A stretch of 50,214 nucleotides of DNA from a virus (taxonomy: Duplodnaviria; Caudoviricetes), in IMG/VR virus record IMGVR_UViG_3300019458_000045, positions 1 through 50,214 of that record; one strand, 5' to 3'. Below, piece by piece: positions 5,341 through 31,461 of the stretch. A program made the translations under genes and the position numbers. Every line of letters begins with the position of its first letter. Position 1 is the stretch's first letter. The notes under the pieces were generated by a model. The model saw only the letters and a list, made by a program, of their open reading frames with translations. It was not told the DNA's origin and ran no database searches.

Positions 5341-5692
5341 GTTACCCCAAAATCTCGATCCCAACTCCTTGACCGCCAAGAGGTTACGCAGCACTTTTGA
5401 GGCTCGTATCAAATCCGGCGGGGGTGGTGTCCGAGACCATGCCCGTTCGCCGAACAAGCCAAAGACCCCCCTGCAATCCGCCCTAAGTCGTTGGGACTCA
5501 GCGATTAAGGACACCGATAAGCACTCTAATACGTGCCGTAGCTGCCGAAAGAGGCGACTAAGCAAGGCCAGGGCCGTATCTACCGGCCAAGAACCGTACC
5601 GGCTGTGTGGCCGGGCCCTGGCCCTGTGGAACGCCGAGACGTCCGCATGGCGGGCGTACATACGACTGGGTGGCGGGATTCCGACGAGGTAG
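5327..5692 (+). CDS. hypothetical basic protein (H..CxxC..C possible metal site)
   Basis: Fills the gap between two coupled genes; the GTG start is inferred. Confidence 0.4.
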   Translation: MGRFRLPQNLDPNSLTAKRLRSTFEARIKSGGGGVRDHARSPNKPKTPLQSALSRWDSAIKDTDKHSNTCRSCRKRRLSKARAVSTGQEPYRLCGRALALWNAETSAWRAYIRLGGGIPTR

Positions 5693-5694
5693 AT

Positions 5695-6564
5695 ATGCTG
5701 CACAACAAGGCAAGGCGCATGAGGTCCATGGCCCGCCCGTCCGTCCAGGAGGACGGGACCGTGGACGTGGACGCCATTTCCTACACACAGATCGCCATGT
5801 GGCTCAGGTGCGGGGAGCAGTACCGGCAGCGGTACGTGCTGGGCAAGAAGGAGCCGCCCGCCGTGGCCATGGCCGAGGGGATCGCGCAGCACGCGGCCAT
5901 GGAGGCGGACAACCGGGAGAAGCTGGACCACGGCAAGACCCTGCCGACCAGCCAGCTTACGGCGATCTTCGCCGGTCATTTCGACAAGACCATAACGGAG
6001 TTTGAGGAGGCGTGCGACAGCCTCAAGACCACGCTGGACTGGGGCGGGGAGGACCGGGACGCCATCCTCCTGCGCGGCAAGAAGCACCTGGACAAGTTCG
6101 CCGCCGAGGTGACGGCGAAGATCGAGCCCGAGAGCGCCGAGGAGCCGTTCATCCGGGAGGTACCGGCCGGGGAGCACGGGGAGTCGTTCCGGCTTGCCGG
6201 GCAGGTGGACTTCACCACCAAGTCGCTGGTGGGGGACTACAAGGTCTCCTCCCGGGCCAAGAGCGACCGGGACATCAGGGAGGACTTGCAGTTGACGCTC
6301 TACTCCTGGGTCCGCAAGAAGCACCGGGTGCAGTTCGTTAACTTTGTGAAGGCGAAAGACCCATGGATTCAACTGATAGACCACGAGCGGACGCCGAACG
6401 ACTGGGCCTGGTCCCTGGAGGTGGTGAGCCGCGTGGTGAAGTCCATCCGGGCTGGCCACTTCCCGCTGGTCAACACGACGCAGTACATCGTCCCGCCGTG
6501 GTGGTGTTCGGCGGATCGGTGCGGGTACTGGGCGGATTGCAAGGGCAAGTACGAGAATAGGTGA
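5695..6564 (+). CDS. Cas4/AddB-like PD-(D/E)XK exonuclease
   Basis: 'ISYTQIAMWLRCGEQYRQRY', 'GQVDF...GDYK', 'QLTLY' and C-terminal C-x4-C-x5-C give a four-Cys Fe-S staple pattern. Confidence 0.85.
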   Translation: MLHNKARRMRSMARPSVQEDGTVDVDAISYTQIAMWLRCGEQYRQRYVLGKKEPPAVAMAEGIAQHAAMEADNREKLDHGKTLPTSQLTAIFAGHFDKTITEFEEACDSLKTTLDWGGEDRDAILLRGKKHLDKFAAEVTAKIEPESAEEPFIREVPAGEHGESFRLAGQVDFTTKSLVGDYKVSSRAKSDRDIREDLQLTLYSWVRKKHRVQFVNFVKAKDPWIQLIDHERTPNDWAWSLEVVSRVVKSIRAGHFPLVNTTQYIVPPWWCSADRCGYWADCKGKYENR

Positions 6565-6567
6565 GCC

Positions 6568-6918
6568 ATGGCGGTGAGCGAACTGGTCCAGGGCTTGTCC
6601 CAGGACTTCCAGCGGTGGGGGTTGGAGGCTGCTACCCGCGTGGCCTACGGGGTTGGCCAGTGGGGGATTCCTGAGGACAACGTTTGGATTGGCCAGACTG
6701 CCGATGGACGAATTGCCGGTTGACCTATCGCGTACGCTGCTGGCCGGATGCCAGGTCAGGATTTTGACGACATTCCCATGGATACAATCCGCTATTCGTA
6801 CATGCAGGTTGATGGTCCTATGGCAGGTCATGTCGTTTCCCTGCCTGAAGGAACTACGGCCAAGGACGTTCTGGCCGCCGCGAGGTTGGCTATCCGCAGG
6901 TTGAAGAGATCCTCCTAG
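6568..6918 (+). CDS. putative selenoprotein A1 (116 aa, in-frame TGA at 6721-6723, codon 52)
   Basis: Reads ...GRIAG*PIAYAAG...LPEGTTAKDVLAAARLAIRRLK. Homologous to 7772..8119 on both sides of the TGA; SECIS-like hairpin follows. Confidence 0.8.
6721..6759 (+). promoter_or_regulatory. putative bacterial SECIS element 1
   Basis: UGA, then 16 nt, then CUGGC-CGGAU-GCCAG (6740-6754). UGACCU can alternatively pair with AGGUCA (6753-6758). Confidence 0.7.
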
Positions 6919-6980
6919 AAGCGTGGGGGGGCCGTAAACGAGCCCCTTAGAACAGTAGGCACCCACGCTTCTAGGGGGAT
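6909..6980 (+). other. 19-bp RNA stem-loop (one G-U pair) with an internal hairpin
   Basis: ATCCTCCTAGAAGCGTGGG (6909-6927) pairs with CCCACGCTTCTAGGGGGAT (6962-6980). Confidence 0.7.
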
Positions 6981-7014
6981 TGCTGAGGAATTCACTCTTT
7001 AGGAGGATGGGCTA

Positions 7015-7368
7015 GTGCAAGATAACCAAGCAGCGGACAAGGCCCTCGACCTACTTAGAGACTTGGCGGGGGTGGTTGGAGGAACAGCAGAGAAACTCTG
7101 GCCGATGGCTGTGGAAGCGACGTGGGCTCGTGGCGTTACCCACCTTGTTTGTGGGACGGCAGGGGCATTGGTCTCCATTGGGGTAGTGTGCTTGGTATTC
7201 CGGCTGACGAGGAACCTGCATTCTGATGACAAGACAACGGCAAGGGCCGCATTCTTTTTCACTGGCCTTATTGGAGGCATCATTTCTTGTATAACGGGGC
7301 TTTCAATGGGGCTTCCTATGGTGTTGGCCCCCCAAGGTATGACGATCTTCAATCTTCTTGGACGCTAA
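7015..7368 (+). CDS. membrane protein with two hydrophobic segments
   Basis: AGGAGG RBS, GTG start, two TM-like stretches, lower GC than its neighbours. Confidence 0.65.
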   Translation: MQDNQAADKALDLLRDLAGVVGGTAEKLWPMAVEATWARGVTHLVCGTAGALVSIGVVCLVFRLTRNLHSDDKTTARAAFFFTGLIGGIISCITGLSMGLPMVLAPQGMTIFNLLGR

Positions 7369-7405
7369 GCTGGGGGAGTACTGTGAGGCGGAGGCGTGAC
7401 CTATA

Positions 7406-7762
7406 ATGACACACAAGTCCACCTGGAAGGCCGCCGAGAGGAAGGTCGCCAGGATCTTCAGGACCTCCCGCAGGCCATACTCGGGCGCGGCCGACAGCTA
7501 CGGCAAGGACGACATCATCCACGACAAGGCGTTCGTGGAGGTGAGGCTCCGCAAGTCGTTCCAGCCTGTTCGGTGGTGGCGCAAGGAAGTGGAGCCGGAG
7601 GCGAAAGAGGCCGGAAAGCTGCCGGTGCTGGTCCTGTTCCAGAAGGGGGACGGGCAGCCGTTCGTCCTGTGCCCGCTGGATGCCGACTATCTGCGCAATC
7701 TGTGGGAGTTGATCGGCACGCCGGACGTTATCCTAGCGAAGGACGACGAATCCTGCGGTTAG
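7406..7762 (+). CDS. Hjc-like Holliday junction resolvase (PD-(D/E)XK)
   Basis: 'WKAAERKVAR', 'RRPYSGA', 'DDII', 'VEVRLRK' follow the E..D..ExK-like layout; ends with 'LPVLVL'. Confidence 0.65.
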   Translation: MTHKSTWKAAERKVARIFRTSRRPYSGAADSYGKDDIIHDKAFVEVRLRKSFQPVRWWRKEVEPEAKEAGKLPVLVLFQKGDGQPFVLCPLDADYLRNLWELIGTPDVILAKDDESCG

Positions 7763-7771
7763 GGAGGAGAC

Positions 7772-8119
7772 ATGAGCAAGCGCGAGTTGGTGGAGGTCCT
7801 GGCGAGGTCGTTCAAGTCGTGGCGCTTGGGTGCCGCCAAGCGGGTGGTCAGTGGGGTCCTCAAGTGGGGGATTCCCCGCAACCTCGGTGAGTGGATCGGC
7901 TTGAACGTCAAGAGACGTATGTCCGGTTGACCCATCATGTACGCCGCTGGCTGGACGCCGGTTCAGGACTCCAATGACTTCCCTGACGACATTGACCGTT
8001 ACCGCTATAGCTGGGATGGGTGGGGGAACCGCGCTGGCCTGCCTGGAGGAACTACGGCCAAGGACGTGCTGACCGCCGCACGGCGGGCCGTTCGCCGGTT
8101 GAAGGAGAAGAGGAGCTGA
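7772..8119 (+). CDS. putative selenoprotein A2 (115 aa, in-frame TGA at 7928-7930, codon 53)
   Basis: GGGAGG RBS. Reads ...RRMSG*PIMYAAG...LPGGTTAKDVLTAARRAVRRLK; paralog of 6568..6918. Confidence 0.8.
7928..7966 (+). promoter_or_regulatory. putative bacterial SECIS element 2
   Basis: UGA, then 16 nt, then CUGGC-UGGAC-GCCGG (7947-7961; one U-G pair). Confidence 0.7.
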
Positions 8120-8122
8120 CCA

Positions 8123-8584
8123 ATGGCCATCGAGGAAAAGAACTGGCTTCCGTGGGACAGGTACTTCCCGGACCAGGAACTCACGGACGCGGAGAAGGAC
8201 GCCGGGTATGTTAACCTGAATACCCTGGGGTTTTCCGTCGGCCTGCTTGCGTTGTCTCACCTTGCCGATATGGCCCGGGCACAGGAGAGCGGCGGGGGCG
8301 TGGAGTCTGGCGGCATACTGACCGGGTACTCCACGGCCGGACTCATGGAGGCCATGGTGCGCTACGGATCGACCGCGGTCGAGCGCACCCTGGGCCGGGA
8401 TGAAGCCATCCGCTGGTGGAAAATGTGCGTGTTCGACAAGTTGGTCCGCGTTTTGGGTGAAAAGTACCCGGAGGTGGCCAGTCTTCATGTCTGGAAAGAC
8501 AAATCTCCTGGCGGACCCGGCGTGTCGGAAGTGCCCGCTCCACAAGACGGCGGGGACGGTTTGCATCCCAAGCCGGGGAGATAA
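8123..8584 (+). CDS. hypothetical protein
   Basis: AGGAG RBS, 153 aa; overlaps the polymerase start. Confidence 0.55.
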   Translation: MAIEEKNWLPWDRYFPDQELTDAEKDAGYVNLNTLGFSVGLLALSHLADMARAQESGGGVESGGILTGYSTAGLMEAMVRYGSTAVERTLGRDEAIRWWKMCVFDKLVRVLGEKYPEVASLHVWKDKSPGGPGVSEVPAPQDGGDGLHPKPGR

Positions 8585-10892
8585 GCGCCCCCGCATCCTG
8601 TTCGTCGGCCAGGCCCCGGGGGCGCTCGAGGACGAGACGGGCAAGTGCTTCGTCGGTCCGGCCGGACAGTTGCTCACCCGGGCCATCCGCAAGTACGTCA
8701 CCGTCCCGTACCGCCTGACGAACGCCGTCAAGTGCTTCCCTCCCGGGGACCGCAAGCCCAAGGCGGTGGAGCTGGGGTCGTGCCGGTCCTACCTGGACGC
8801 CGAGGTCCTGCACTACCGGCCGGACATCATCGTGGCCGTCGGGGACGTGCCCCTTCGTCACCTTACCGGCAAGACCGGGATCACGTCCTGGTCTGGCCGC
8901 GTGGCCGGTACCCTCAAGTTCGAGTCGGGGGACACCGAGTCGGGCGTGCCCCCCTACGAGCCCCGGGTGTTCGCGCTGATCCATCCCGCCTTCGTGCTCC
9001 GGGCCCCCGGCAACCTACCCAAGTTCGAGGCCGGGATGCGGGAACTGAACAGGCTGGCCGTGGGCGGGCCAAGCGGCAACCAAGCGCCGGTCTCCGAGGT
9101 GGACCAGGAAGGCTTCTGCAACTTCTTCCTGGCTGCCGGACACGCCGGGAAAATCATCGCCTTCGACTACGAGACGAACGGACATCCGTGGTGGTCCGGC
9201 GGCAAGCTGCGGTGCGTGTCCCTGTCGGATGGGACGTCCGCCGTCTGGATGGACGTGGAAAAGCACGGCAAGGCCGCGCTCCAAGCCCTGTTGCTGTTCC
9301 TGGACAGCCTGTTCCCAAAGGCCGCCCACAACATTTCGTTCGAGACCAACTGGTCCCGGGCGTTGTTCAGCCGGGAGCCCCGGCGTCTCAAGTGGGATAC
9401 GATGCTCCTCCACTACCTGTGGAACGAAAACTCCCACCACAACCTGGAATCGGTGGCCGGGGAGGTGTTGGGCGCGTCCCCCTGGGACATCCACCTGGAA
9501 ATGAAGGGCCGCAAGTGGACGTGGGATACGGTCCCCATGGAGGTCTTAGGTCCGTACAACGCCATGGACTCCTACTGGACGGCGAGGCTTGCGGGCGTCC
9601 TGCCTGAGAGGCTGTCTCCCAACCACTTGAAACTGTACAGGCGGCACATCATCAAGCAGGCCCGGGTATGCGCCCGCATGGAGTGGAACGGAATCCGCCT
9701 GGACCCCACCTGGGCCGAATGTGCGGACAAGTACCATGAGAAGGCGATGTCGGCCATCGAGTCCGAGATCCGCGCCCATCCCAAGGTCACGGCCGTTCAG
9801 AAGAAACTGAAAGACGTCACGTTCAACCTGCGATCCGCCTACCACATGAGGGCGCTGGTGTACGATCACCTGCGGATGCCCGTGTTCGAGCGCACCCCCG
9901 GGGGCTTGCCGTCCACGGCCGAGGAGGTACTGGACCGCCTCAAGGGCCGGTCCCCGCTTCTCGGCCGCATCATGGCGTGGCGGGAGACCGAGACCGTGCG
10001 CCGCAGGTACTTGCAGAAGTTCCCCGCCTACGCGCATACGGACGGCATCGTGCGCCCCGGGTACAACCCGGCCCGGATCGTCCCCGGCCGGATCGCCGTG
10101 ACGGACCCGCCGATGCAGACTCTCCCCACGTCCGCCGTCGTCCGGGGCATGGTCGTCTCGCGGTGGACCGGCGGCAAGATCCTGTCCGCCGACTACAAGC
10201 AGCTTGAGATCCGGCTGGTGGCCAACGAGTCCGGCGACGGCAAGTTGATCCGTTCCATAGCGGTTGGGGAGGACCAGCACGACAAGACCGCAAGTGAAAT
10301 CTTCGGTGGCAAGTTCACCAAGGATGATCGGCTGATCGCCAAGCGCATCAACTTCGGCATCGTCTACGGAATATCGCCATACAGCCTGGCCGCCCAGTTC
10401 AACATGACGGTGGACCGGGCCGAGGACATCTTCCGCCGGTTCCGAAAGGCCCGTCCGATGATTTTCCAGTGGATGGCCCGACAGCACGCCTTCATCGAGA
10501 AGCACGGATACATCAAGTCCCGGTTCGGCCGCAAGCGTCGGCTCCCTGAGATCCGCCACGCGGACGAGAAGCTGAAGGCCCGAATCTTCCGCCAGGCCGG
10601 GAACTTCCCCATCCAGTCCGCCGGGGCGGACATCACCAACCTGGCCATGATCCTGGTGGACCGGGAGCTGCGCAGGAGAAAGCTGAAGTCCCTGCTCGTC
10701 CTGCAAGTCCACGACTCCCTGCTGGTGGACCTGCACCCGGACGAGGTTAACGTGGTGCCCGATCTCGTCGTTAACCTTATGACCAAACAAGTTCAACGGC
10801 TCTGTCCCTGGATGCGCGTGAAGCTGGAAGTGGACGTGTCCGTGGAGGACCGATGGGGAGGCGCGACGAATGTGGGCGAGGCGGCTGCTTGA
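8487..10892 (+). CDS. polA: family A DNA polymerase with N-terminal family-4 uracil-DNA glycosylase-like domain and 3'-5' exonuclease
   Basis: UDG4: CRKCPL, VGQAPG, FVGPAGQLL, TNAVKC, HPAFVLR. Exo: AFDYET, AHNISFE, YNAMD. Pol motifs: A SADYKQLEIR, B RLIAKRINFGIVYG, C QVHDS. Confidence 0.95.
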   Translation: MSGKTNLLADPACRKCPLHKTAGTVCIPSRGDKRPRILFVGQAPGALEDETGKCFVGPAGQLLTRAIRKYVTVPYRLTNAVKCFPPGDRKPKAVELGSCRSYLDAEVLHYRPDIIVAVGDVPLRHLTGKTGITSWSGRVAGTLKFESGDTESGVPPYEPRVFALIHPAFVLRAPGNLPKFEAGMRELNRLAVGGPSGNQAPVSEVDQEGFCNFFLAAGHAGKIIAFDYETNGHPWWSGGKLRCVSLSDGTSAVWMDVEKHGKAALQALLLFLDSLFPKAAHNISFETNWSRALFSREPRRLKWDTMLLHYLWNENSHHNLESVAGEVLGASPWDIHLEMKGRKWTWDTVPMEVLGPYNAMDSYWTARLAGVLPERLSPNHLKLYRRHIIKQARVCARMEWNGIRLDPTWAECADKYHEKAMSAIESEIRAHPKVTAVQKKLKDVTFNLRSAYHMRALVYDHLRMPVFERTPGGLPSTAEEVLDRLKGRSPLLGRIMAWRETETVRRRYLQKFPAYAHTDGIVRPGYNPARIVPGRIAVTDPPMQTLPTSAVVRGMVVSRWTGGKILSADYKQLEIRLVANESGDGKLIRSIAVGEDQHDKTASEIFGGKFTKDDRLIAKRINFGIVYGISPYSLAAQFNMTVDRAEDIFRRFRKARPMIFQWMARQHAFIEKHGYIKSRFGRKRRLPEIRHADEKLKARIFRQAGNFPIQSAGADITNLAMILVDRELRRRKLKSLLVLQVHDSLLVDLHPDEVNVVPDLVVNLMTKQVQRLCPWMRVKLEVDVSVEDRWGGATNVGEAAA

Positions 10893-11070: not shown

Positions 11071-11279
11071 GGATCAAGTATTCCGTAGGGCGCACCGTGA
11101 ACATCGGGAATTTCGAGTCGCTGAGGTTCGATGTCGGCGCGGAACGCACGCCGGACGCGGGCCAGGACCCGCTGGATGTCTACGACGAACTCAAGCGGTG
11201 GTGTGATACCAGGATGGACGTGTTGACGGCTCCGTTTGACGGCGGGGCCAAGAAGAACAGAAAGAAAGGAGCGAAGTGA
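11067..11279 (+). CDS. conserved phage protein (TVNIGNFES motif)
   Basis: AAGGAGG RBS and GTGA overlap. This motif is commonly seen next to phage SSB genes. Confidence 0.65.
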   Translation: MRIKYSVGRTVNIGNFESLRFDVGAERTPDAGQDPLDVYDELKRWCDTRMDVLTAPFDGGAKKNRKKGAK

Positions 11280-11953
11280 TGGGACTGGACCTGGACAAGA
11301 TCCGCAAGCGTCAGGCCGACGACCGCGCCCGCCGGGGCGGACGGTTCAAGCTGGCCGACGGCAAGAACCGCATCCGCATCCTCAAGTTCAAGCACAAGGT
11401 CACCAAGGAGGACGTGGCGGCCAAGCTGTACGAGAAGGGCGAACTGGGGACCGTGGTCGAGGAGATCGACCGCCCTATCAGCATCCACTGGACCGGCAAG
11501 AACAACTCCCCGGTCCTGTCCACGCCGAAGCTGGTGGCCGAGTACGAGAAGTACGCCCAGTCCGGCAAGGCCAAGGACCTGGCGTACGCCAACAAGATCG
11601 GCCCCCGGTCGGTGTCGCTGGTGAACCTCGTGGACACGAACGAGCGCCCGTACCGCGTCCGACAGACCATGCTGCCCAAGTCCGTCATCGACGACGTGTG
11701 GGCGAAGGTGCTTGATGAGGACTACGGCGAGGGCGTCCTCGGTGTCAGGGGCCGGGACTTCACGGTAGTCAAGAACCCCAAGGCCAAGGCCCCCAAGGAC
11801 TACTACAAGACGGACGTCCGGGACAAGGACGCCTGCGCGGCCCTGCCCGCCAAACTGGAGAAGGACGTCGCGGACCTGTACCGTCAGGACGTCCTGGTCA
11901 AGGTGGGGCTGGTCCCCAAGGACGGGGGCGACGACTCCGGGGAGGAGGAGTAG
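11276..11953 (+). CDS. single-stranded DNA-binding protein (gp32-like)
   Basis: 'RFKLADGKNRIRIL', 'GRDFTVVK', acidic tail (DDSGEEE), replication context. Confidence 0.7.
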   Translation: MMGLDLDKIRKRQADDRARRGGRFKLADGKNRIRILKFKHKVTKEDVAAKLYEKGELGTVVEEIDRPISIHWTGKNNSPVLSTPKLVAEYEKYAQSGKAKDLAYANKIGPRSVSLVNLVDTNERPYRVRQTMLPKSVIDDVWAKVLDEDYGEGVLGVRGRDFTVVKNPKAKAPKDYYKTDVRDKDACAALPAKLEKDVADLYRQDVLVKVGLVPKDGGDDSGEEE

Positions 11954-12465: not shown

Positions 12466-12723
12466 ATGCCCTACATCAAGCCGCAGGATCGCACGGAGGG
12501 AGCGCGTCTGCACCCCTGCAACATTGGTGCGCTGAACTACGCCATTACCACGCTGATCGACGACTACCTTTCCTCCAAGGGCCTGCAGTACAGCGAGGTG
12601 AACGCCGTCATCGGGGCCCTGGAGTGCGCCAAGCTGGAACTTTACCGCAGGGTCGCGGCTCCCTACGAGGACCACAAGATCTATGAAAACGGCGACGTCT
12701 ATTCGCCTGGAAACCTCGTATGA
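12466..12723 (+). CDS. DUF6899-like conserved phage protein
   Basis: 'MPYI', 'GALNYAIT', '[28 protein letters not shown]'. Confidence 0.75.
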
Positions 12724-13999
12724 CTTCGACGTTCCCTTCCAGCGCAACCTACTGGCGGCGGCCTGGAACGACCGGGACTTCCTCGCCAAGGCCGAGGAGT
12801 GCCTGCGGCCCGACTACTTCACGGACGAGGTGCTGGCGGGAGTAGCCCGCGCCCTGCTCCACCTGTGGTCGGCCCACCGGACGCTGCCGGACCTGCCCGC
12901 CGTCCTTGAGCGGGTCCGCGAGGAGGTCGCCCCCGGCCGCAAGTACGGCGAGTATGAGAAGGAAGTCAAGCGCGTATGGAGCCAGCGTGGAACCAACACC
13001 GAATACTACCGCGAGCGGGCCGTTGAGTTCGCCAGACGACAGGCTGTCGCGGATGCTGTACTCGCTGCTGACGGCCTCATGGCTGACGGGAAACTTGACT
13101 CGATTGAGCCTCTCCTTCGCCGGGCTCTCGCCACCGGGGGTGGGCTCGCTGGCCAGTCGTACAATCACCTTGAGGAAGCTGATGCCCGGCTTGCGCTGTA
13201 CGTTCAGCGCGACGGCGCACGATCCCGAGACGAACGGCGAGTACCTTGCGGAATTGGTCCTATTGATGCCGCCACGCAGGGCGGCCTCGGAAAGGGGGAA
13301 CTCGGATGCGTCGTAGGGCTGGCCGGAAAGGGCAAGACTACGTGTCTTATCAACCACGGGGCGAACGTCCTGATGGGGGGTCGGAACGTCCTGCACGTCA
13401 CCCTGGAGAACTCCCTGGAGGTGACGGCGGCGCGGTACGACGCCCGGCTGTTCGGCCGGTCGATGGCCAGGATCAAGAAGTTCCCGGCCAAGTTCCAGAA
13501 GCACATGGCGAAGCTGCGGGAGGATTTGACTTCCCGGCTGCTGATACGCTACTACCCGACTGGGATGCTTACGGCTTCGACCTTGGAGGTGGAGATTGAG
13601 CGGGCTTCACCTAGGCCGGACGTGGTGTTCGTGGACTATGCGGCCCTCATGCGAACAGCGGGTGCTGCTGGAGGTCGTGATGGGCTGCGGTTCGAACTGG
13701 CTGATACGTTTCGGGATCTACGCCGGGTCAGCGGCATTACGTCTGCACCTATATGGACGGCACATCAGGCGAACCGCCCGGGGGTGGGCGCTGAAAAGCT
13801 CGGTATGGTACATCTGTCCGAGTGTTTCGAGATTGCTGGCATCGTTGATGTGGGCCTTTCGATAAACTGGGACGACGACAAGCCCGCCGAGGTGTCGATG
13901 TATGTCTGGAAGAACCGGCTGGGTAAGGGCGATTTCGAGGTTCCCTGTTCTGTCAACTGGGAGACCAGCATCATTTCCTCTTACAGCGACGAGGTGTAG
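12683..13999 (+). CDS. DnaB-like replicative helicase
   Basis: Walker A GLAGKGKT, 'LHVTLEN', 'VFVDYA', 'WTAHQANR', 'KNRLG'. Confidence 0.92.
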
Positions 14000-14500
14000 A
14001 TGAGCGATCAAGACACTGCTGGGAATTACCAGGAACTCCCCGTGCCTTCCGATTTGCCTCTCCCCCCAGGGGACCCCGTTGACAACCCAATGACTCCACT
14101 GGACCCTTATCTTTTCCGGGACCAATACACCCCAGTGGTAGGAGTCCCCGAGGAGTCCACCGTCGTCATCCGGCACAAGCCGGACGGCGGCTACAAGCTG
14201 GACCAGGACAAGCAGCGGTGGGACTTGCTGCCCATCCGCCCCATGCGGAAGGTCGTGGACGTGTACACCCGGGGCTCCAAGAAGTACGCGGATCGCAACT
14301 GGGAAAACGGCATGAAGTGGAGCCGGGTGTACGGGGCGCTGCTCCGGCACGTCACCGCCTTCTGGAACGGCGAGAGCATCGACGAGGAAGGTGGCCAGCA
14401 CCACTTGGCCAGCGTCGTATTCTCAGCCCTGGCCCTCATGCAGTACGAGGAGGACTTCCCCGACCTGGACGACAGGCCAAGGAAGCCGGGGGTGAAGTGA
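14000..14500 (+). CDS. dATP/dGTP diphosphohydrolase domain protein (DUF5664)
   Basis: 'GYKLDQDKQRWDLLP', 'GSKKYADRNWENG', 'ALLRH', 'GESIDEEGGQHHLA'. Confidence 0.85.
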   Translation: MSDQDTAGNYQELPVPSDLPLPPGDPVDNPMTPLDPYLFRDQYTPVVGVPEESTVVIRHKPDGGYKLDQDKQRWDLLPIRPMRKVVDVYTRGSKKYADRNWENGMKWSRVYGALLRHVTAFWNGESIDEEGGQHHLASVVFSALALMQYEEDFPDLDDRPRKPGVK

Positions 14501-14919
14501 TGGACGAGGCATACAGCCCGCTCAAGGTGTACATCGCCAGCCGGTTCCCCGACCGGGACGACTGTCTGTACCTTAAGGGGCAACTGGAAGCCCGAGGCTA
14601 TCAAGTCACCTCGACGTGGCTCACCCCGGCGGACGGCAACTCCGCGAACATGGCGACCCTGCGCGGCAAGCACGTTGAGTGCCGACAGCGGGCTATCAAG
14701 GACATCGAGGACATCAAGGCGGCCGATGTCGTCGTCCTGATGTCGCCCAAGAAGGCCCACAGGAACGGCACAGGCGGGCGTCACGTCGAGTGCGGCATCT
14801 CCATCGCCCTGGGCAAGCCCATCATCCTCGTTGGGGAGCGGGAGAACGTGTTCCACTATCACCCCCTGGTGCGGGTCGTCGGGGACGAAATGGGCGTATA
14901 CGGGGCGCTAGGAGCTTGA
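14500..14919 (+). CDS. nucleoside 2-deoxyribosyltransferase-like / nucleotide hydrolase
   Basis: 'KVYIAS', 'DIEDIKAADVVV', 'GGRHVECGISIALGKPIILVG'. Confidence 0.75.
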   Translation: MDEAYSPLKVYIASRFPDRDDCLYLKGQLEARGYQVTSTWLTPADGNSANMATLRGKHVECRQRAIKDIEDIKAADVVVLMSPKKAHRNGTGGRHVECGISIALGKPIILVGERENVFHYHPLVRVVGDEMGVYGALGA

Positions 14920-15878
14920 GCCTGTCCCTGCTGTCGGCCCTCACGTCCAAGCTCGGGGAGTACGACTCCAACCCTGTCCGAGACGACGGGGAGTACGAGT
15001 TCGTATGTCCCAGGTGCCCCAAGCAGGACGGCAAGCGCAAGCTGGGGGTCAACGTCTCCCGCAAGGTGTTCAACTGCTTCCGGTGCGGGTGGCGCGGGCG
15101 GCTGGTCGATCTCTTGCGGGCCCTGGGTATCAACCCGCTTTCCCTCGGCCCCGACCTGGGCATACGCCCGGTGGCCGCCTCGGACACCTACGGCCCGAAG
15201 GTGCGGCCGGACCAGATTCCCGGCTATACCCCTCTGCCGGAGCCGGACCAGCCCATGAGCCGGATAGAGCAGGTGGCGTACGACTACTGCCGGGAGCGCG
15301 GCCTGGACGACGTGGGCGAGGTCACGTCCCTTCGCCTGGGAACGTCCACGGAGAAGGACCTTGCCGGGCGGCTGGTGATCCCGGTGTTCGAGGACGGCCG
15401 CATGGCGGGGTACTTCGCCCGGTCCCTGTTCGACTACCTTGAACCCAAGGACAAGGTTGGGCCGGAGTACCTGGGCTGGGCCCCCAAGGGAGAGTTGGCG
15501 TACGGCCTGGACCTGATGCGGCCCGGCCACGTCCTCGTCCTGGTCGAGGGGTTTTGGGATTGGGTGCGGGTGCGGAAGGTATCGCGGTCCCTGGATTCGT
15601 TGGCGCTGCTTGGGTCCAACCTCGGGCCCGTGGCGGCGGGCAAGATCCTGGCCCGGCGGCCCGGCCGCATCGTCGTCATGCTGGACGGCGACGAGGCTGG
15701 GGAGCGCGGCACCCGCAAGATCGTGTCTGAGCTGCTGGTCCACCGGAAGTTCGCCTCCGTCCACGTCGCCCGTCCCCCAGTGGGCAAGGACCCCGACGAG
15801 TTGACGGCGGGCACGATCCTCGCCCTGGTGAACGAGGCCATACCCGCCGTCAACTGGCTTATCAAGCACGGGCGGTAG
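14916..15878 (+). CDS. DNA primase (Zn finger + TOPRIM)
   Basis: CPRC...FNCFRCG, 'RLVIPV', 'LVEGFWD', 'LDGDEAG', 'KDPDE'. The TTG start is inferred from the overlap. Confidence 0.9.
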   Translation: MSLSLLSALTSKLGEYDSNPVRDDGEYEFVCPRCPKQDGKRKLGVNVSRKVFNCFRCGWRGRLVDLLRALGINPLSLGPDLGIRPVAASDTYGPKVRPDQIPGYTPLPEPDQPMSRIEQVAYDYCRERGLDDVGEVTSLRLGTSTEKDLAGRLVIPVFEDGRMAGYFARSLFDYLEPKDKVGPEYLGWAPKGELAYGLDLMRPGHVLVLVEGFWDWVRVRKVSRSLDSLALLGSNLGPVAAGKILARRPGRIVVMLDGDEAGERGTRKIVSELLVHRKFASVHVARPPVGKDPDELTAGTILALVNEAIPAVNWLIKHGR

Positions 15879-16164
15879 GTTCGCTGAACAGGTGGGCCGG
15901 GAACCTGAATCGGAAGGGCTTGGTGGGGAAATCCATGCCGACGTCCGTGATAGCCTAGGTTTGGATCTTGACCATACGTTTCGGCCAGGGATAGTTCAGG
16001 AGACCCTCTTCTCCATACACCATTGCGGACTTGACCTGAACACTGTGGCACTTGACTCCTGCGTCCAGCAGGGCTAGGGCCACAGGTCACTGCTCGGTGT
16101 TTCTCAACTGGGACCGTCCCCTCTTCAAGTGATCCTCGGTCACCGGGACGTAACGGTACTTCAT
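15862..16164 (-). CDS. putative selenoprotein B1 (TGA codon 26 at 16089-16087; also in-frame TAG codon 70 at 15957-15955)
   Basis: AAGGAGG RBS. Reads MKYRYVPVTEDHLKRGRSQLRNTEQ*PVALALLDAG...KIQT*AITDVGMDFPTKPFRFRF...; the TGA aligns with Cys in CPVALAI of 23084..23365. Confidence 0.7.
16052..16089 (-). promoter_or_regulatory. putative bacterial SECIS element 3
   Basis: UGA, then 14 nt, then CCUGC-UGGAC-GCAGG (16072-16058), a perfect 5-bp stem, followed by AGUCA which can pair with UGAC. Confidence 0.7.
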
Positions 16165-23083: not shown

Positions 23084-23365
23084 ATGAAGAAGGTGCTGAA
23101 GGTTCGTGTGGGGAAGTACCACATCCAGCAGGGCATCAGGTGTTCCCTGACCAAGTGCCCTGTAGCCCTCGCCATTAACTCCCTGCTGCCCTAGGGTCAA
23201 AGCGGGTGTGTGGCACCGGACAGCGTGGATATTGGGAGTTCCAGTGACTCCTGGTACAAGACGTTTTACTTGCCCCCGAAGGTGGTGGCCTTCATTTACG
23301 CCTTCGACACCGGCAAGCCTGTCAAGCCCTTCACGTTCAACCTGGTGGTGGAGTTGTGGGCGTAG
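23084..23365 (+). CDS. Cys-containing paralog B2 of the minus-strand selenoprotein; in-frame TAG at 23192-23194 (readthrough or pseudogene)
   Basis: GGAGG RBS. Reads MKKVLKVRVGKYHIQQGIRCSLTKCPVALAINSLLP*GQSGCV...LPPKVVAFIYAFDTGKPVKPFTFNLVVELWA. Confidence 0.65.
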
Positions 23366-26697: not shown

Positions 26698-27387
26698 ATG
26701 GGAAAGCCTGGCCGTCCCCGAACGAGAGTTCCTCCCCCCGACCCCTGCAAACTGGACATCGACCCCGACTGGCTCGACTGGTTCAAGCTGGAATGTCCCA
26801 GGAAGCGCGAGTTCCTTCTCAGGTTCGAGGCGTGCGGGTCGGCCAAGACCGCCTGCCGGTTGACCAAGATCCGGCCCTCCGAATTGGACAAGTGGCTCAA
26901 CGACAAGGACGAGTCCGGCCAGTTGACCCGGGACGCCGAGACCATGCGCATGGCCATGGACATGGCCCTCGAGCACCGCGTCCAGGTGCTTGAGAACGAG
27001 GCCCGCCGCCGGGCCTTCATGGGCTCCGACCTGCTGCTCATTTTCCTGCTCAAAGCGGCCAGGCCCAACGTGTACCAGGACAATATGCGGCTGGTCCATG
27101 CGGGCACCGATCCCCTGACCGGCCAGCCCCGGAACCAGTTGAACATCCAGGTCAACAACATGGCTCCCGCGCCGCTGGCGATTCACGAGCCAGAGCAGCT
27201 CGAGCGGGTAATGGAATTGGCCAGACGATACAATCTTGTAGACAGGCTGTTCCCGAAGGTCAAAGATGGCGAAGTTGCCGCAGATCCAGTTGGCGCAGAA
27301 CCTGTTGACGGCTCTGACGCCGAAGTGGACGAGGTACATCCCGATAACACCGCACCCGAAGCAACATCTTTTGCTGTGTCTGGATAA
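26698..27387 (+). CDS. terS: terminase small subunit
   Basis: 'PGRPR', HTH-like segment, 'LENEARRRAF.GSDLLLIFLLKAARPNVY'; immediately upstream of TerL. Confidence 0.8.
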   Translation: MGKPGRPRTRVPPPDPCKLDIDPDWLDWFKLECPRKREFLLRFEACGSAKTACRLTKIRPSELDKWLNDKDESGQLTRDAETMRMAMDMALEHRVQVLENEARRRAFMGSDLLLIFLLKAARPNVYQDNMRLVHAGTDPLTGQPRNQLNIQVNNMAPAPLAIHEPEQLERVMELARRYNLVDRLFPKVKDGEVAADPVGAEPVDGSDAEVDEVHPDNTAPEATSFAVSG

Positions 27388-28714
27388 CGTTGAAGAGATT
27401 TTCTTCGGCGGCGCGGCCGGACCAGGAAAGAGTGCTGCCCTTCTCGCGTGTTGCCTTCAGTACGTGGACCAGCCCGATTACGCCGCGCTCATCGTGCGGC
27501 GCAACTATCCCGACCTGGTGCAGCCCGGCGGCCTGGTTGACATGAGCCACGATTGGCTGGACGGCACCGCCGCCAAGTGGAACGAGCAGTTCAAGAAGTG
27601 GCATTTCCCCGGCGGGGCCTGCCTGCAATTCGGCCACATGGACAACAAGACCGAGATCAAGCGGTACAAGGGTGGCCAGTACCAGACTATCTGCATCGAC
27701 GAAATGACCGACTTCAACAAGACCGAGGCTATGTTCCTACACTCCAGGCTTCGTCGCCGCACCGGGTCCACGATCCCGCTCCGGTTCCGGGCCGCCTCGA
27801 ACCCCGGGGGCACTGGGCACGAGTGGGTCAAGGCCCGGTACGTGGACTACGACGGCAGCGACCGCCTGTTCATCCCGGCCACACTGGACGACAACCCCTA
27901 CATCGACCGGGCCGCCTACGTGCGGTCCCTGGACCGGCTGGACCCCATCACCCGGGAACGACTACTCAAGGGGGACTGGACCGTCACGGACGGTGGCCGG
28001 ATCTTCGACCGTTCCTGGTTCGCCAACTTCTACGACGCCCGCCCGGAACTCGTGTCCGCTCGGGTGCGGGCGTGGGACCTTGCCGCCACGGTTCACGACG
28101 CCTCCAAGGAGACGGCTGGGGTGCTCATGTCCCGGACGGTCAAGGGACTGTGGGCGGTCGAGCACGTCGTCCACGGCAAGTGGCTGCCTGGCGACCGGGA
28201 TCGTGTCATCCGCCAGACAGCCGAGACGGACGGTGAGTACACCTCGGTCGTGATCGAGGAGGAGCCGGGTTCCGGTGGAAAGGCTCAGAACGAGAACCTG
28301 ATCCGTATGCTGGCTGGCTTCCGCGTGGAGTCCATCAAGGTCACGGGCGACAAGTTCGTGCGGGCCGGGGCCTTCGCCTCCCAGTGCCAGGCCGGTAACG
28401 TATTCCTGGTCCGGGGCCCGTGGAACGCGGCCTACATCGACCAGCTTCACGCGGCCGACCCTGAGAACGACGAGTTGCTGATTGACATGATGGACGCATC
28501 CAGCTTGGGATTCAACGCGCTGGTCCGCAAGCCGCTCAACCCGTACGCGGTGGAGACGCCGGAGCGCACCGCCAAGCGGTCCTTGGGCCTGGACCTGGAC
28601 TGGGAACGGGCCGAGGAAGAGGAGGCTGCCGAGGCCGCTAAAGCGCGCAAGGTCAACCTGTACGAGAGGATGTTCGCGGACACTGGATCTTCTTTCAGGG
28701 AGTGGTTCCTGTGA
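27266..28714 (+). CDS. terL: terminase large subunit
   Basis: 'PHPKQ', Walker A GGAAGPGKS, Walker B ICIDE, 'ASNPGG', 'DNPY', nuclease 'RAWDLAA' and 'DMMDA'. Confidence 0.95.
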   Translation: MAKLPQIQLAQNLLTALTPKWTRYIPITPHPKQHLLLCLDNVEEIFFGGAAGPGKSAALLACCLQYVDQPDYAALIVRRNYPDLVQPGGLVDMSHDWLDGTAAKWNEQFKKWHFPGGACLQFGHMDNKTEIKRYKGGQYQTICIDEMTDFNKTEAMFLHSRLRRRTGSTIPLRFRAASNPGGTGHEWVKARYVDYDGSDRLFIPATLDDNPYIDRAAYVRSLDRLDPITRERLLKGDWTVTDGGRIFDRSWFANFYDARPELVSARVRAWDLAATVHDASKETAGVLMSRTVKGLWAVEHVVHGKWLPGDRDRVIRQTAETDGEYTSVVIEEEPGSGGKAQNENLIRMLAGFRVESIKVTGDKFVRAGAFASQCQAGNVFLVRGPWNAAYIDQLHAADPENDELLIDMMDASSLGFNALVRKPLNPYAVETPERTAKRSLGLDLDWERAEEEEAAEAAKARKVNLYERMFADTGSSFREWFL

Positions 28715-30060: not shown

Positions 30061-31461
30061 ATGAGCCTTCCCTTCATGATCCGCCAGTCCGTATCCAAGG
30101 AACTGTACGGACACCAGTACGCCTCGCTGATTTGGGCGGGGCGGGCCCACGACCAGTCCCTCGCCCTGTCCAGGGACCCGGCCGTCTACGAGAAGCTGCG
30201 CCTGGACGCCACCATTTCCCACCTGATGCAGATTCGCAAACACATGGTCGCGGGGAGCAGGTGGCAGCTTGAACCCGCATCGAACCGGGACGTGGACAAG
30301 CGCGGCGCGGAGGTGATGGAGAGGCTGCTTGACATCGGCCTCAAGAGGTTCGCCACGGCACGGTTCAACCTGGCCGAGGCCGTATTTACCGGCTCGGCGT
30401 ACGCCCGGATCAACGGCCACCACAAGTGGATCACGGTTTTCGACGGCGTGCCCCGGCAGTTTTGGGTGGCCACGGACCTGGCGGACGTAGACCGCCGCCG
30501 CTTCGACAAGATGTACGTTCGGCTGAACGAGGGGACGCCCGACGAGCAGGTGACCATCCAGTGGCGGATGTTCAACGTCCAGAAGAACGACTGGGAGGTG
30601 TGGGACCACCCCGAGTGGTACGTCAAGAACATCTACAACGACCAGGAAGAGTCGCTGGGCTACGGGCAGGGCCTTATCGACTCCATGTACTTCTACTGGA
30701 GGGCCAAGGAGATCCTGTGGAAGGCGGGATTGCAGGGCGCGGAGCGGTGGGCCCTGGGCATGATGATCGCCAAGGTTGACAACGCCCGCAGCGCCTCCAC
30801 CGGCAAGACCAACGCGGCTCTCGTCAACTCCTTCATTTCTGAGCTGGAACGTCAGCGGTCCCAGCACTACTTCGTCATGGACAAGGTGGACGAACTGGAA
30901 ATGATGGACGGCCCGCAGACCGGCTCCGAGATCGTGGAGCGGTTGATTCAGTATTGCGACCGTCAGCTTCGGCTGCTTATCCTTGGGTCTAACCTGCCCA
31001 CCGAGGCTACCGGCGGCGGGTCGTACAACCTGGCCGAGGTGCAGCAGGGCACCACGGACACGCTCATCAAGTACGACCGGGCTCTGGTGGCTGAGGCTTT
31101 GACCCAGGACTTGCTGAACCTGCTGTGGCTCGTCAACCGCCCGGTGCTGTTCGGCATGGGCCTGGGGTCGGCTGAAATGCCCCGCATGGTCATCCTGGAC
31201 GAGCGTCGGAGCGACCCGAAGATGATGGCGGATGTTACCAAGACCATTCTTGAGGCTGGCATCCCGCTCAAGGCCGACGAGACCTACGAGTTGCTTGGTC
31301 GCACGCAGCCCGGACCCGGGGACGAACTGATCGAGCCGATGGCCCGTCAGCAGTTTGATCCAGGCGGGGAGTTCCGACAGGACGTCAACCCGCTGGATAC
31401 GCCCGAGACCGTCAATCCCACAGGATCAGACAAGAAGGAGTCACAGACCAATGGTGCCTGA
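30061..31461 (+). CDS. portal protein (Mu gp29 / DUF935-like)
   Basis: 'DATISHLMQIRK', 'YGQGLI', 'ERWALG', 'LILGSNLPTE..GGGSYNLAEV'; positioned after TerL. Confidence 0.85.
   Translation: MSLPFMIRQSVSKELYGHQYASLIWAGRAHDQSLALSRDPAVYEKLRLDATISHLMQIRKHMVAGSRWQLEPASNRDVDKRGAEVMERLLDIGLKRFATARFNLAEAVFTGSAYARINGHHKWITVFDGVPRQFWVATDLADVDRRRFDKMYVRLNEGTPDEQVTIQWRMFNVQKNDWEVWDHPEWYVKNIYNDQEESLGYGQGLIDSMYFYWRAKEILWKAGLQGAERWALGMMIAKVDNARSASTGKTNAALVNSFISELERQRSQHYFVMDKVDELEMMDGPQTGSEIVERLIQYCDRQLRLLILGSNLPTEATGGGSYNLAEVQQGTTDTLIKYDRALVAEALTQDLLNLLWLVNRPVLFGMGLGSAEMPRMVILDERRSDPKMMADVTKTILEAGIPLKADETYELLGRTQPGPGDELIEPMARQQFDPGGEFRQDVNPLDTPETVNPTGSDKKESQTNGA

Follow-up and report, generated by a model that had tools for sequence, protein, structure and literature searches.

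Selenocysteine (Sec) has been described in cellular organisms and in a small number of animal viruses. The prototype of a bacterial selenoprotein gene that carries its selenocysteine insertion sequence (SECIS) within the open reading frame (ORF) is fdhF of Escherichia coli. The selenoproteins of eukaryotic viruses, such as the glutathione peroxidases of poxviruses, belong to a known enzyme family captured from the host and are served by a SECIS in the 3′ untranslated region. In-frame stop codons are also translated in phages with a reassigned code, where TAG can stand for glutamine and TGA for tryptophan. Here we describe two paralogous genes, at 6568-6918 and 7772-8119 on the plus strand of a virus of the Caudoviricetes (IMG/VR record IMGVR_UViG_3300019458_000045), both of which probably encode Sec at an in-frame UGA, as judged from their homologues and from a hairpin that follows the codon. 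The window, that is, the whole stretch of DNA that was analysed, is the full virus record of 50,214 b; it looks complete (CheckV 100%) and has a G+C content of 63%.

Like the selenoprotein genes of bacteria, the two genes have an in-frame UGA where homologues have cysteine (Cys), with a hairpin downstream inside the ORF, at a spacing of 19-21 nucleotides (nt) across the UGA sites of the window. Unlike them, they are encoded by a phage without Sec machinery of its own, belong to a new and unnamed family and have no nearby second Cys; the loop of the hairpin is of the form YGGAY, versus GGUC-type loops in the two formate dehydrogenase (FDH) genes that were inspected. As with the selenoproteins of eukaryotic viruses, a virus would here borrow the Sec machinery of its host for a protein of its own, whereas the signal is of the bacterial, in-ORF type and the family is without known function. 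The parallel with stop-reassigned phages is that in-frame stops of phage genes are proposed to be translated; however, only three codons are concerned in this genome, each at the position of an invariant Cys and each accompanied by a hairpin, and TGA is otherwise a normal stop.

Full-text literature searches returned no described selenoprotein from a virus of bacteria. The words phage, virus and viral are absent from a 2026 review of prokaryotic selenoproteomes (PMC13188914). Some huge phages carry predicted tRNA-Sec genes, on which one paper remarks and speculates (PMC10747093), and a marine trace-element survey found that its selenoprotein families contained little or no sequence from viruses (PMC9402790). 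The mechanism proposed below is that already known from bacteria, and the novelty lies in the phage setting, the protein family and a cassette shared by three genes.

Results and discussion

An in-frame UGA at the invariant cysteine of a rare protein family

A sequence-only reading of this DNA had taken the two ORFs for diverged paralogs that keep a TGA at the same aligned codon, and pairwise alignment bears this out. When read through the TGA, paralog 1 (6568-6918, stop TAG) encodes 116 aa with the Sec candidate at residue 52, and paralog 2 (7772-8119, stop TGA at 8117-8119) encodes 115 aa with the candidate at residue 53. The two products are identical at 60 of 114 positions (53%, E 6e-35) in an alignment that runs across the TGA, and the codons at 6721-6723 and 7928-7930, both in the context UGA-CC, fall in one column with equal conservation on either side. 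All of the shared motifs quoted in the earlier reading are present: ELV, W.L.AA.RV..GV..WGIP and WIG before the TGA, and PI.YAAG and LP.GTTAKDVL.AAR.A.RRLK after it. We refer to the two genes and their homologues as family A.

We searched 1,835,955,588 representative proteins exhaustively with HMMER, which returned nine hits at E≤0.001. Two of these are N-terminal fragments of the paralogs themselves, truncated at the TGA during gene calling, and three are long repetitive proteins that were left out of the comparison. The remaining four are TGA-free homologues of 107-175 aa, each a single ORF, and none of them ends at the position of the UGA. All four have Cys in that column (GCPITYATGW, CACPISYAAGW, KCCPIEYAAG and GCGSPHAYATGW), where neither Trp nor a variable residue is found, and the column is one of 11 invariant columns in an alignment of seq­uences numbering seven. 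A second Cys stands in the C-terminal helix (L.AC[RD]) of four homologues; the window copies have Ala there and possess no nearby second Cys that would make a CxxU or UxxC motif.

A third TGA form of family A occurs in an unrelated phage of 38,191 b with terminal repeats and a G+C content of 49%, which was found by a DNA pattern scan of IMG/VR. Its homologue has the TGA at the same column (GTKG-U-PITYAAGWTP), again in the context UGA-CC. Read from translations, the ORFs upstream of this gene resemble an RNase H-fold exonuclease, a small membrane protein and a nuclease, and its TGA stop is shared, as ATGA, with the start of an ORF resembling a deoxyribosyltransferase, a setting similar to that of the pair in the window. 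In a tree of the seven sequences, which have long branches, the sole supported split (95/95) separates two groups, both of which contain Sec forms as well as Cys relatives.

Family A is extremely rare, as far as these collections and the following searches indicate. Neither family A nor its homologues have a Pfam or PHROG family above sub-threshold noise, in agreement with the earlier statement that the family could not be named. Word-indexed protein searches yielded no new member and returned three known proteins or the window's own half; a related-locus search found none with a two-sequence alignment and none with one Cys-form homologue; and tblastn of a paralog product against 50,697 phage records gave no match. 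Motif scans were similarly sparse. The TGA-form motif matched 17 stretches of IMG/VR viral contigs, one of them a relative, and the same motif with Trp at the UGA position matched a single stretch of viral contigs, at the same locus again. In metagenome contigs, G-[TGN]-PI.YA[AT]G matched at least 119 stretches, with one relative among the matches listed, a duplicate of the second phage's gene in the matched part. A motif scan of 185,579 species' genomes (one per bacterial species) gave 29 stretches and a scan for GTTAKDVL gave 11, with no relative in either. A tblastn hit on one species-genome locus (E 5e-4) was rejected; it lies elsewhere on that locus and lacks the C/U-P-I motif.

Many large genes of the window end normally in TGA, for example 5605-6564, 8400-10892, 27266-28714 and 30061-31461; TAG is the commonest stop elsewhere in it. 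In the second phage, TGA ends 21 of the 40 minus-strand ORFs of at least 90 aa. With so many other genes of both phages ending in TGA, a global reassignment of the codon (genetic codes 4 or 25) was rejected. Additional in-frame TGAs were looked for across the window; the output was noisy because the DNA is rich in GC, and no further candidate was convincing.

A Logan contig with a depth of 16 is identical to 6400-8300, making an assembly error unlikely in this region; the contig comes from the only DNA run holding this sequence (a cave metagenome), which is probably the source sample, and hence it is not independent support. No RNA run was listed among the sequencing runs as holding this DNA. 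Read by eye, a Shine-Dalgarno (SD)-like GGTGAG precedes the ATG of paralog 1, the SD of paralog 2 is GGGAGGAG, and strong SD sequences are found at all three UGA genes of the window, the third of which is described below.

Two other TGAs of this region are in frame with a start codon: the stop of the upstream nuclease gene (6562-6564) with the ATG of paralog 1 at 6568, and the stop of paralog 2 (8117-8119, context UGA-CC) with the ATG of the next gene at 8123. With no such hairpin behind either TGA, both look like ordinary stops, although they could in principle allow fusion proteins by readthrough. A long, near-perfect inverted repeat with arms of about 20 bp (CCTCCTAGAAGCGTGGG...CCCACGCTTCTAGGGGG) spans 6908-6981, its start lying within the final codons of paralog 1. 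It was not called as a terminator, and a promoter and terminator scan of 5400-8700 gave nothing above shuffles.

A recurrent hairpin downstream of the UGA

The hairpin described in the sequence-only reading, CUGGC-YGGAY-GCCRG with its loop starting 21 nt past the UGA, was recovered in both genes. In paralog 1 it lies at 6740-6754 (CUGGC-CGGAU-GCCAG) and in paralog 2 at 7946-7962 ((G)CUGGC-UGGAC-GCCGG(U)), with stems that differ at one pair, U-A versus U-G. Perfect 5-bp stems (G-U allowed) around a YGGAY loop occur nine times on both strands of the window. Such a hairpin lies 17-23 nt downstream of 3 of the 1,164 TGA triplets in the window, namely the two family A sites and a TGA at 16089-16087 on the minus strand, which belongs to a gene of a second family (family B, below). 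The hairpin at this third site (16058-16072, minus strand) reads CCUGC-UGGAC-GCAGG and has its loop 19 nt past the UGA. With the motif defined by family A, such a hairpin would fall by chance at the UGA of family B with a probability of about 7 x 9/100,428 = 6e-4. The placement of the hairpins is beyond chance.

The family B hairpin shares the loop and the G-C/C-G top of the stem with those of family A, and two of the five pairs are changed on both sides between the two families. It is encoded by L-L-D-A-G, in another codon phase than the family A hairpin (G-W-T-P). When the hairpins of all UGA sites are aligned, 18 of 20 cells are paired, and both unpaired cells are in the second phage. At all seven Cys-form sites of family B (one in the window, six in Gordonia phages), any generic hairpin reaches -4.2 kcal/mol at best.

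The bacterial SECIS consensus, as set out in the review cited above, has a loop of 3-9 nt, an upper stem of 4-16 bp, a distance of 16-37 nt from UGA to loop, a G at loop position 1 or 2 (as a rule G[G|U]) and an energy of ≤ -7.5 kcal/mol (PMC13188914). The three window sites lie within the dimensions given there, with a loop of 5 nt, a stem of 5-6 bp and spacings of 21, 21 and 19 nt, and their loops (CGGAU, UGGAC and UGGAC) have G-G at positions 2-3. Folded alone, the hairpins of paralog 1, paralog 2 and family B have energies of -7.4, -7.0 and -8.1 kcal/mol, respectively, to be read against that threshold, and the best folds with the hairpin enforced have -9.5, -9.3 and -17.4 kcal/mol. In paralog 2 (-9.3) and family B (-17.4) the hairpin is part of the minimum-energy fold. 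In paralog 1, (G/U)UCA could pair with the UGA to form a lower stem; this needs a 15-nt bulge beside the upper hairpin and was not relied on.

The same cassette in a second, unrelated family

The third UGA gene of the window (15862-16164, minus strand) and a paralog on the plus strand (23084-23365) match phrog_19191 (E 3.7e-06 and 1.6e-11), a group of phage proteins without an assigned function, homologues of which are present in 14 Gordonia phage records. In the minus-strand gene, the UGA at 16089-16087, once more in the context UGA-CC, replaces the invariant Cys of the motif CP[IV]A.A; the position is occupied by Cys in the in-genome paralog (TGC at 23156-23158) and in all six aligned Gordonia homologues. 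The Cys-form paralog has no comparable hairpin, its best generic one being that of -4.2 kcal/mol.

Proteins of phrog_19191 resemble family A in being small phage proteins whose one invariant Cys precedes Pro and then an aliphatic residue. Family A is, however, not detectably a member: its products have no PHROG hit, and a profile-profile comparison of family A with phrog_19191 (hhalign) aligns only 12 columns around C-P-I with a probability of 3.7%. Families A and B appear to be unrelated, with C/U-P-[IV] as their only common core.

Both family B paralogs also contain an in-frame TAG, at 15957-15955 in the UGA gene and at 23192-23194 in the Cys-form paralog. These TAGs are at non-homologous positions: one falls at a column that varies within the family (D-[K/A]-G), the other inside an insertion of four residues, and the homology of the family, including KPF.F, continues past them. 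They may reflect readthrough, pyrrolysine-type decoding or decay.

Proposed decoding and the evidence against it

The Sec reading put forward earlier is supported by Cys at the UGA column in all four TGA-free homologues, by the third TGA form, by the normal use of TGA as a stop and by the recurring hairpin. On this basis, family A would comprise small (~115 aa), mostly helical early phage proteins, a rare unnamed family in which the single invariant Cys of G-[C/U]-P-I-x-Y-A-A-G has been replaced by Sec. The UGA would be decoded co-translationally by the host's Sec-tRNA(Sec) and SelB, with SelB recruited by a SECIS of the bacterial type, namely the hairpin that lies within the ORF some 20 nt past the codon and has a stem of 5-6 bp and a YGGAY loop. 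The phage would supply the cis signals only, and its phrog_19191 gene would carry the same cassette of UGA and hairpin. Dependence on SelB, incorporation of selenium and the biochemical role of the product are all steps that we infer from sequence. We regard Sec at both family A codons as probable and not more than that, chiefly because of the in-frame TAGs of family B and of host evidence that points weakly to several groups.

Several observations weigh against Sec at these codons. The family numbers seven sequences only, so its statistics are thin, and no match in Pfam, PHROG, PDB or BFVD assigns it a function or fold. The family A hairpin overlaps the conserved peptide A-G-W-T-P and its conservation is partly driven by the protein; for this reason it is weak evidence when taken alone. 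The regions around the UGAs do not fold more stably than shuffled sequences (z 0.79, -0.10, 0.42 and 1.06). In paralog 1 a competing fold (-12.6 kcal/mol) beats the hairpin, and the UGA of the second phage has only a 3-bp version (-2.8 kcal/mol alone) and no generic hairpin. Generic bacterial SECIS-like hairpins of equal energy are found at 10-15% of the TG[ACT] positions of this GC-rich window, and the GGA of the loop is unlike the GGU(C) of two FDH SECIS that were examined in genomes whose terminases are the closest relatives (below). Rfam, searched over 6400-8300 at E≤10, gave no SECIS family among six matches. The phage genome encodes no tRNA genes, including no tRNA-Sec, and neither SelB nor SelA, so that decoding must rely on the host. 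Lastly, the in-frame TAGs of both family B paralogs leave room for general readthrough or decay. The six Rfam matches themselves were rejected as spurious; they are miRNA-like and fall on the long inverted repeat.

The UGAs might instead be leaky stops, read by a near-cognate tRNA (Trp or Cys) to give a short product and some full-length protein, with the hairpin at most slowing the ribosome. All four UGA sites are UGA-CC, and UGA-C is known as the leakiest stop context in E. coli; unexceptional hairpin energies, a second phage whose site has no good hairpin, and the hint of stop tolerance in the TAGs of family B would fit leakiness as well. However, the CC is simply part of the Pro codon of the conserved C-P motif, and the terminal UGA-CC of paralog 2 has no hairpin and is succeeded by the start of the next gene. 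Leaky termination does not predict UGAs confined to the invariant Cys across two phages and two unrelated families, or a YGGAY hairpin that recurs at the same spacing in different codon phases, and insertion of Trp would replace the sole invariant reactive residue. We consider this explanation unlikely. Simple nonsense mutation, which would leave functional N-terminal peptides of about 51 aa, or nothing, and decaying downstream halves, is distinctly unlikely. It would agree with gene callers stopping at the TGA, with the single step that separates Cys codons from TGA and with the additional TAGs in the family B copies. Yet the halves after the TGA are as conserved as those before it, including LP.GTTAKDVL.AAR.A.RRLK, as the earlier reading had argued in finding a shared nonsense mutation inadequate, and they align with the C-termini of intact homologues. 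Truncation would also need three independent lineages to hit the same invariant codon, and it leaves the coincidence of the hairpins unexplained.

A further alternative is insertion of Cys at the UGA, either by a SelB-like, SECIS-dependent route that employs a UCA-anticodon tRNA charged with Cys or as a substitute when selenium is scarce. Such Cys-charged tRNAs are known from the literature on Sec recoding, and the column shared by UGA and Cys together with a SECIS-like hairpin would be expected of them too; sequence alone cannot separate Sec from Cys. These systems are rare, however, the phage encodes no tRNA, and nothing at the locus is specific to a Cys route, which we accordingly rate as very unlikely. 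It is extremely unlikely that each locus consists of two genes or that TGA is a sense codon. An ATG does occur 7 nt past the TGA in paralog 2, but in paralog 1 the first start codon after the TGA is at 6748, past the conserved PIAYAAG, and the TGA-free homologues are all single ORFs; a code with TGA as a sense codon is at odds with the many large genes of both phages that TGA ends.

Sec insertion, if accepted for family A, can be extended to the phage as a whole. In this tentative and rather doubtful extension, the phage would have a small selenoproteome of three genes from two unrelated single-Cys C-P-[IV] families, each of which independently gained the same host-tuned SelB-binding hairpin, and the C/U-P-[IV] proteins would represent a new class of phage factors for redox chemistry or covalent catalysis. 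Were this so, the full-length early proteins would be made only in a selenium-replete, Sec-competent cell, and the hairpin would be both a fingerprint of the host SelB and a selenium-dependent switch on phage development.

Host and Sec machinery

The large terminase (27266-28714) has its best cultured-virus matches in psiM100 and psiM2, archaeal viruses of Methanothermobacter (43.6% identity over 82%), with actinobacterial phages ranking behind them. Among sampled genomes, prophage-like loci of Chloroflexota match best, at 46-52% identity (6/301), followed by Actinomycetota at 41% (7/301); weaker matches come from the phylum of a deltaproteobacterial metagenome-assembled genome (3/301) and from that of a Lachnospiraceae genome (8/301). 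The similarity of the terminase thus points weakly to several host groups. The candidate for the major capsid protein had no match in phage records.

The wing-3 domain of SelB scores above the Pfam cut-off in all five genomes with the nearest terminases versus 1 of 14 control genomes, which is a hint only as to the Sec machinery of the host. Two of the five have an FDH gene with an in-frame TGA, and none of them encodes family A.

Genomic context and predicted structure

The gene pair is flanked by a PD-(D/E)XK nuclease gene (5605-6564, plus strand; PF12705, E 1.2e-14), a small membrane protein gene and a family A DNA polymerase gene (8400-10892, plus strand), the nuclease and polymerase genes both ending in an ordinary TGA. 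Because the nuclease adjoins it, the pair is placed in an early DNA-metabolism module. Farther along, an ORF of the dATP/dGTP pyrophosphohydrolase type at 14000-14500 (phrog_801, E 4.6e-35) is flanked by genes for a helicase (12683-13999), a primase (14679-15878) and a protein like single-stranded DNA-binding protein (11276-11953). The family B UGA gene (16164-15862) lies just past this module on the opposite strand.

An AlphaFold2 model of family A, made from seven sequences (pLDDT 80.6), is mostly helical and places the U/C residue immediately before a helix at 53-57. Reactive redox or nucleophilic Cys and Sec residues are commonly placed just before a helix. Foldseek of the model against PDB gave no match (best E 2.1), nor did a comparison with BFVD (best E 1.1) or a VIA wide search (best Z 4.4). 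Since the U/C residue is predicted to stand just before a short helix, we infer that the proteins may have a thiol- or selenol-based role in redox chemistry or covalent catalysis within the replication-stage module; this is the least supported step of our interpretation.

Conclusions

Gene callers systematically truncate genes of this kind, as they did both paralogs here, which entered the protein collection as N-terminal halves. The SECIS hairpin could mark the host range of the phages that carry it, and the homologues define a new and very rare protein family whose sole essential residue would be Cys or Sec. If confirmed, Sec at these codons would mean that phages exploit the most specialised decoding system of their hosts.

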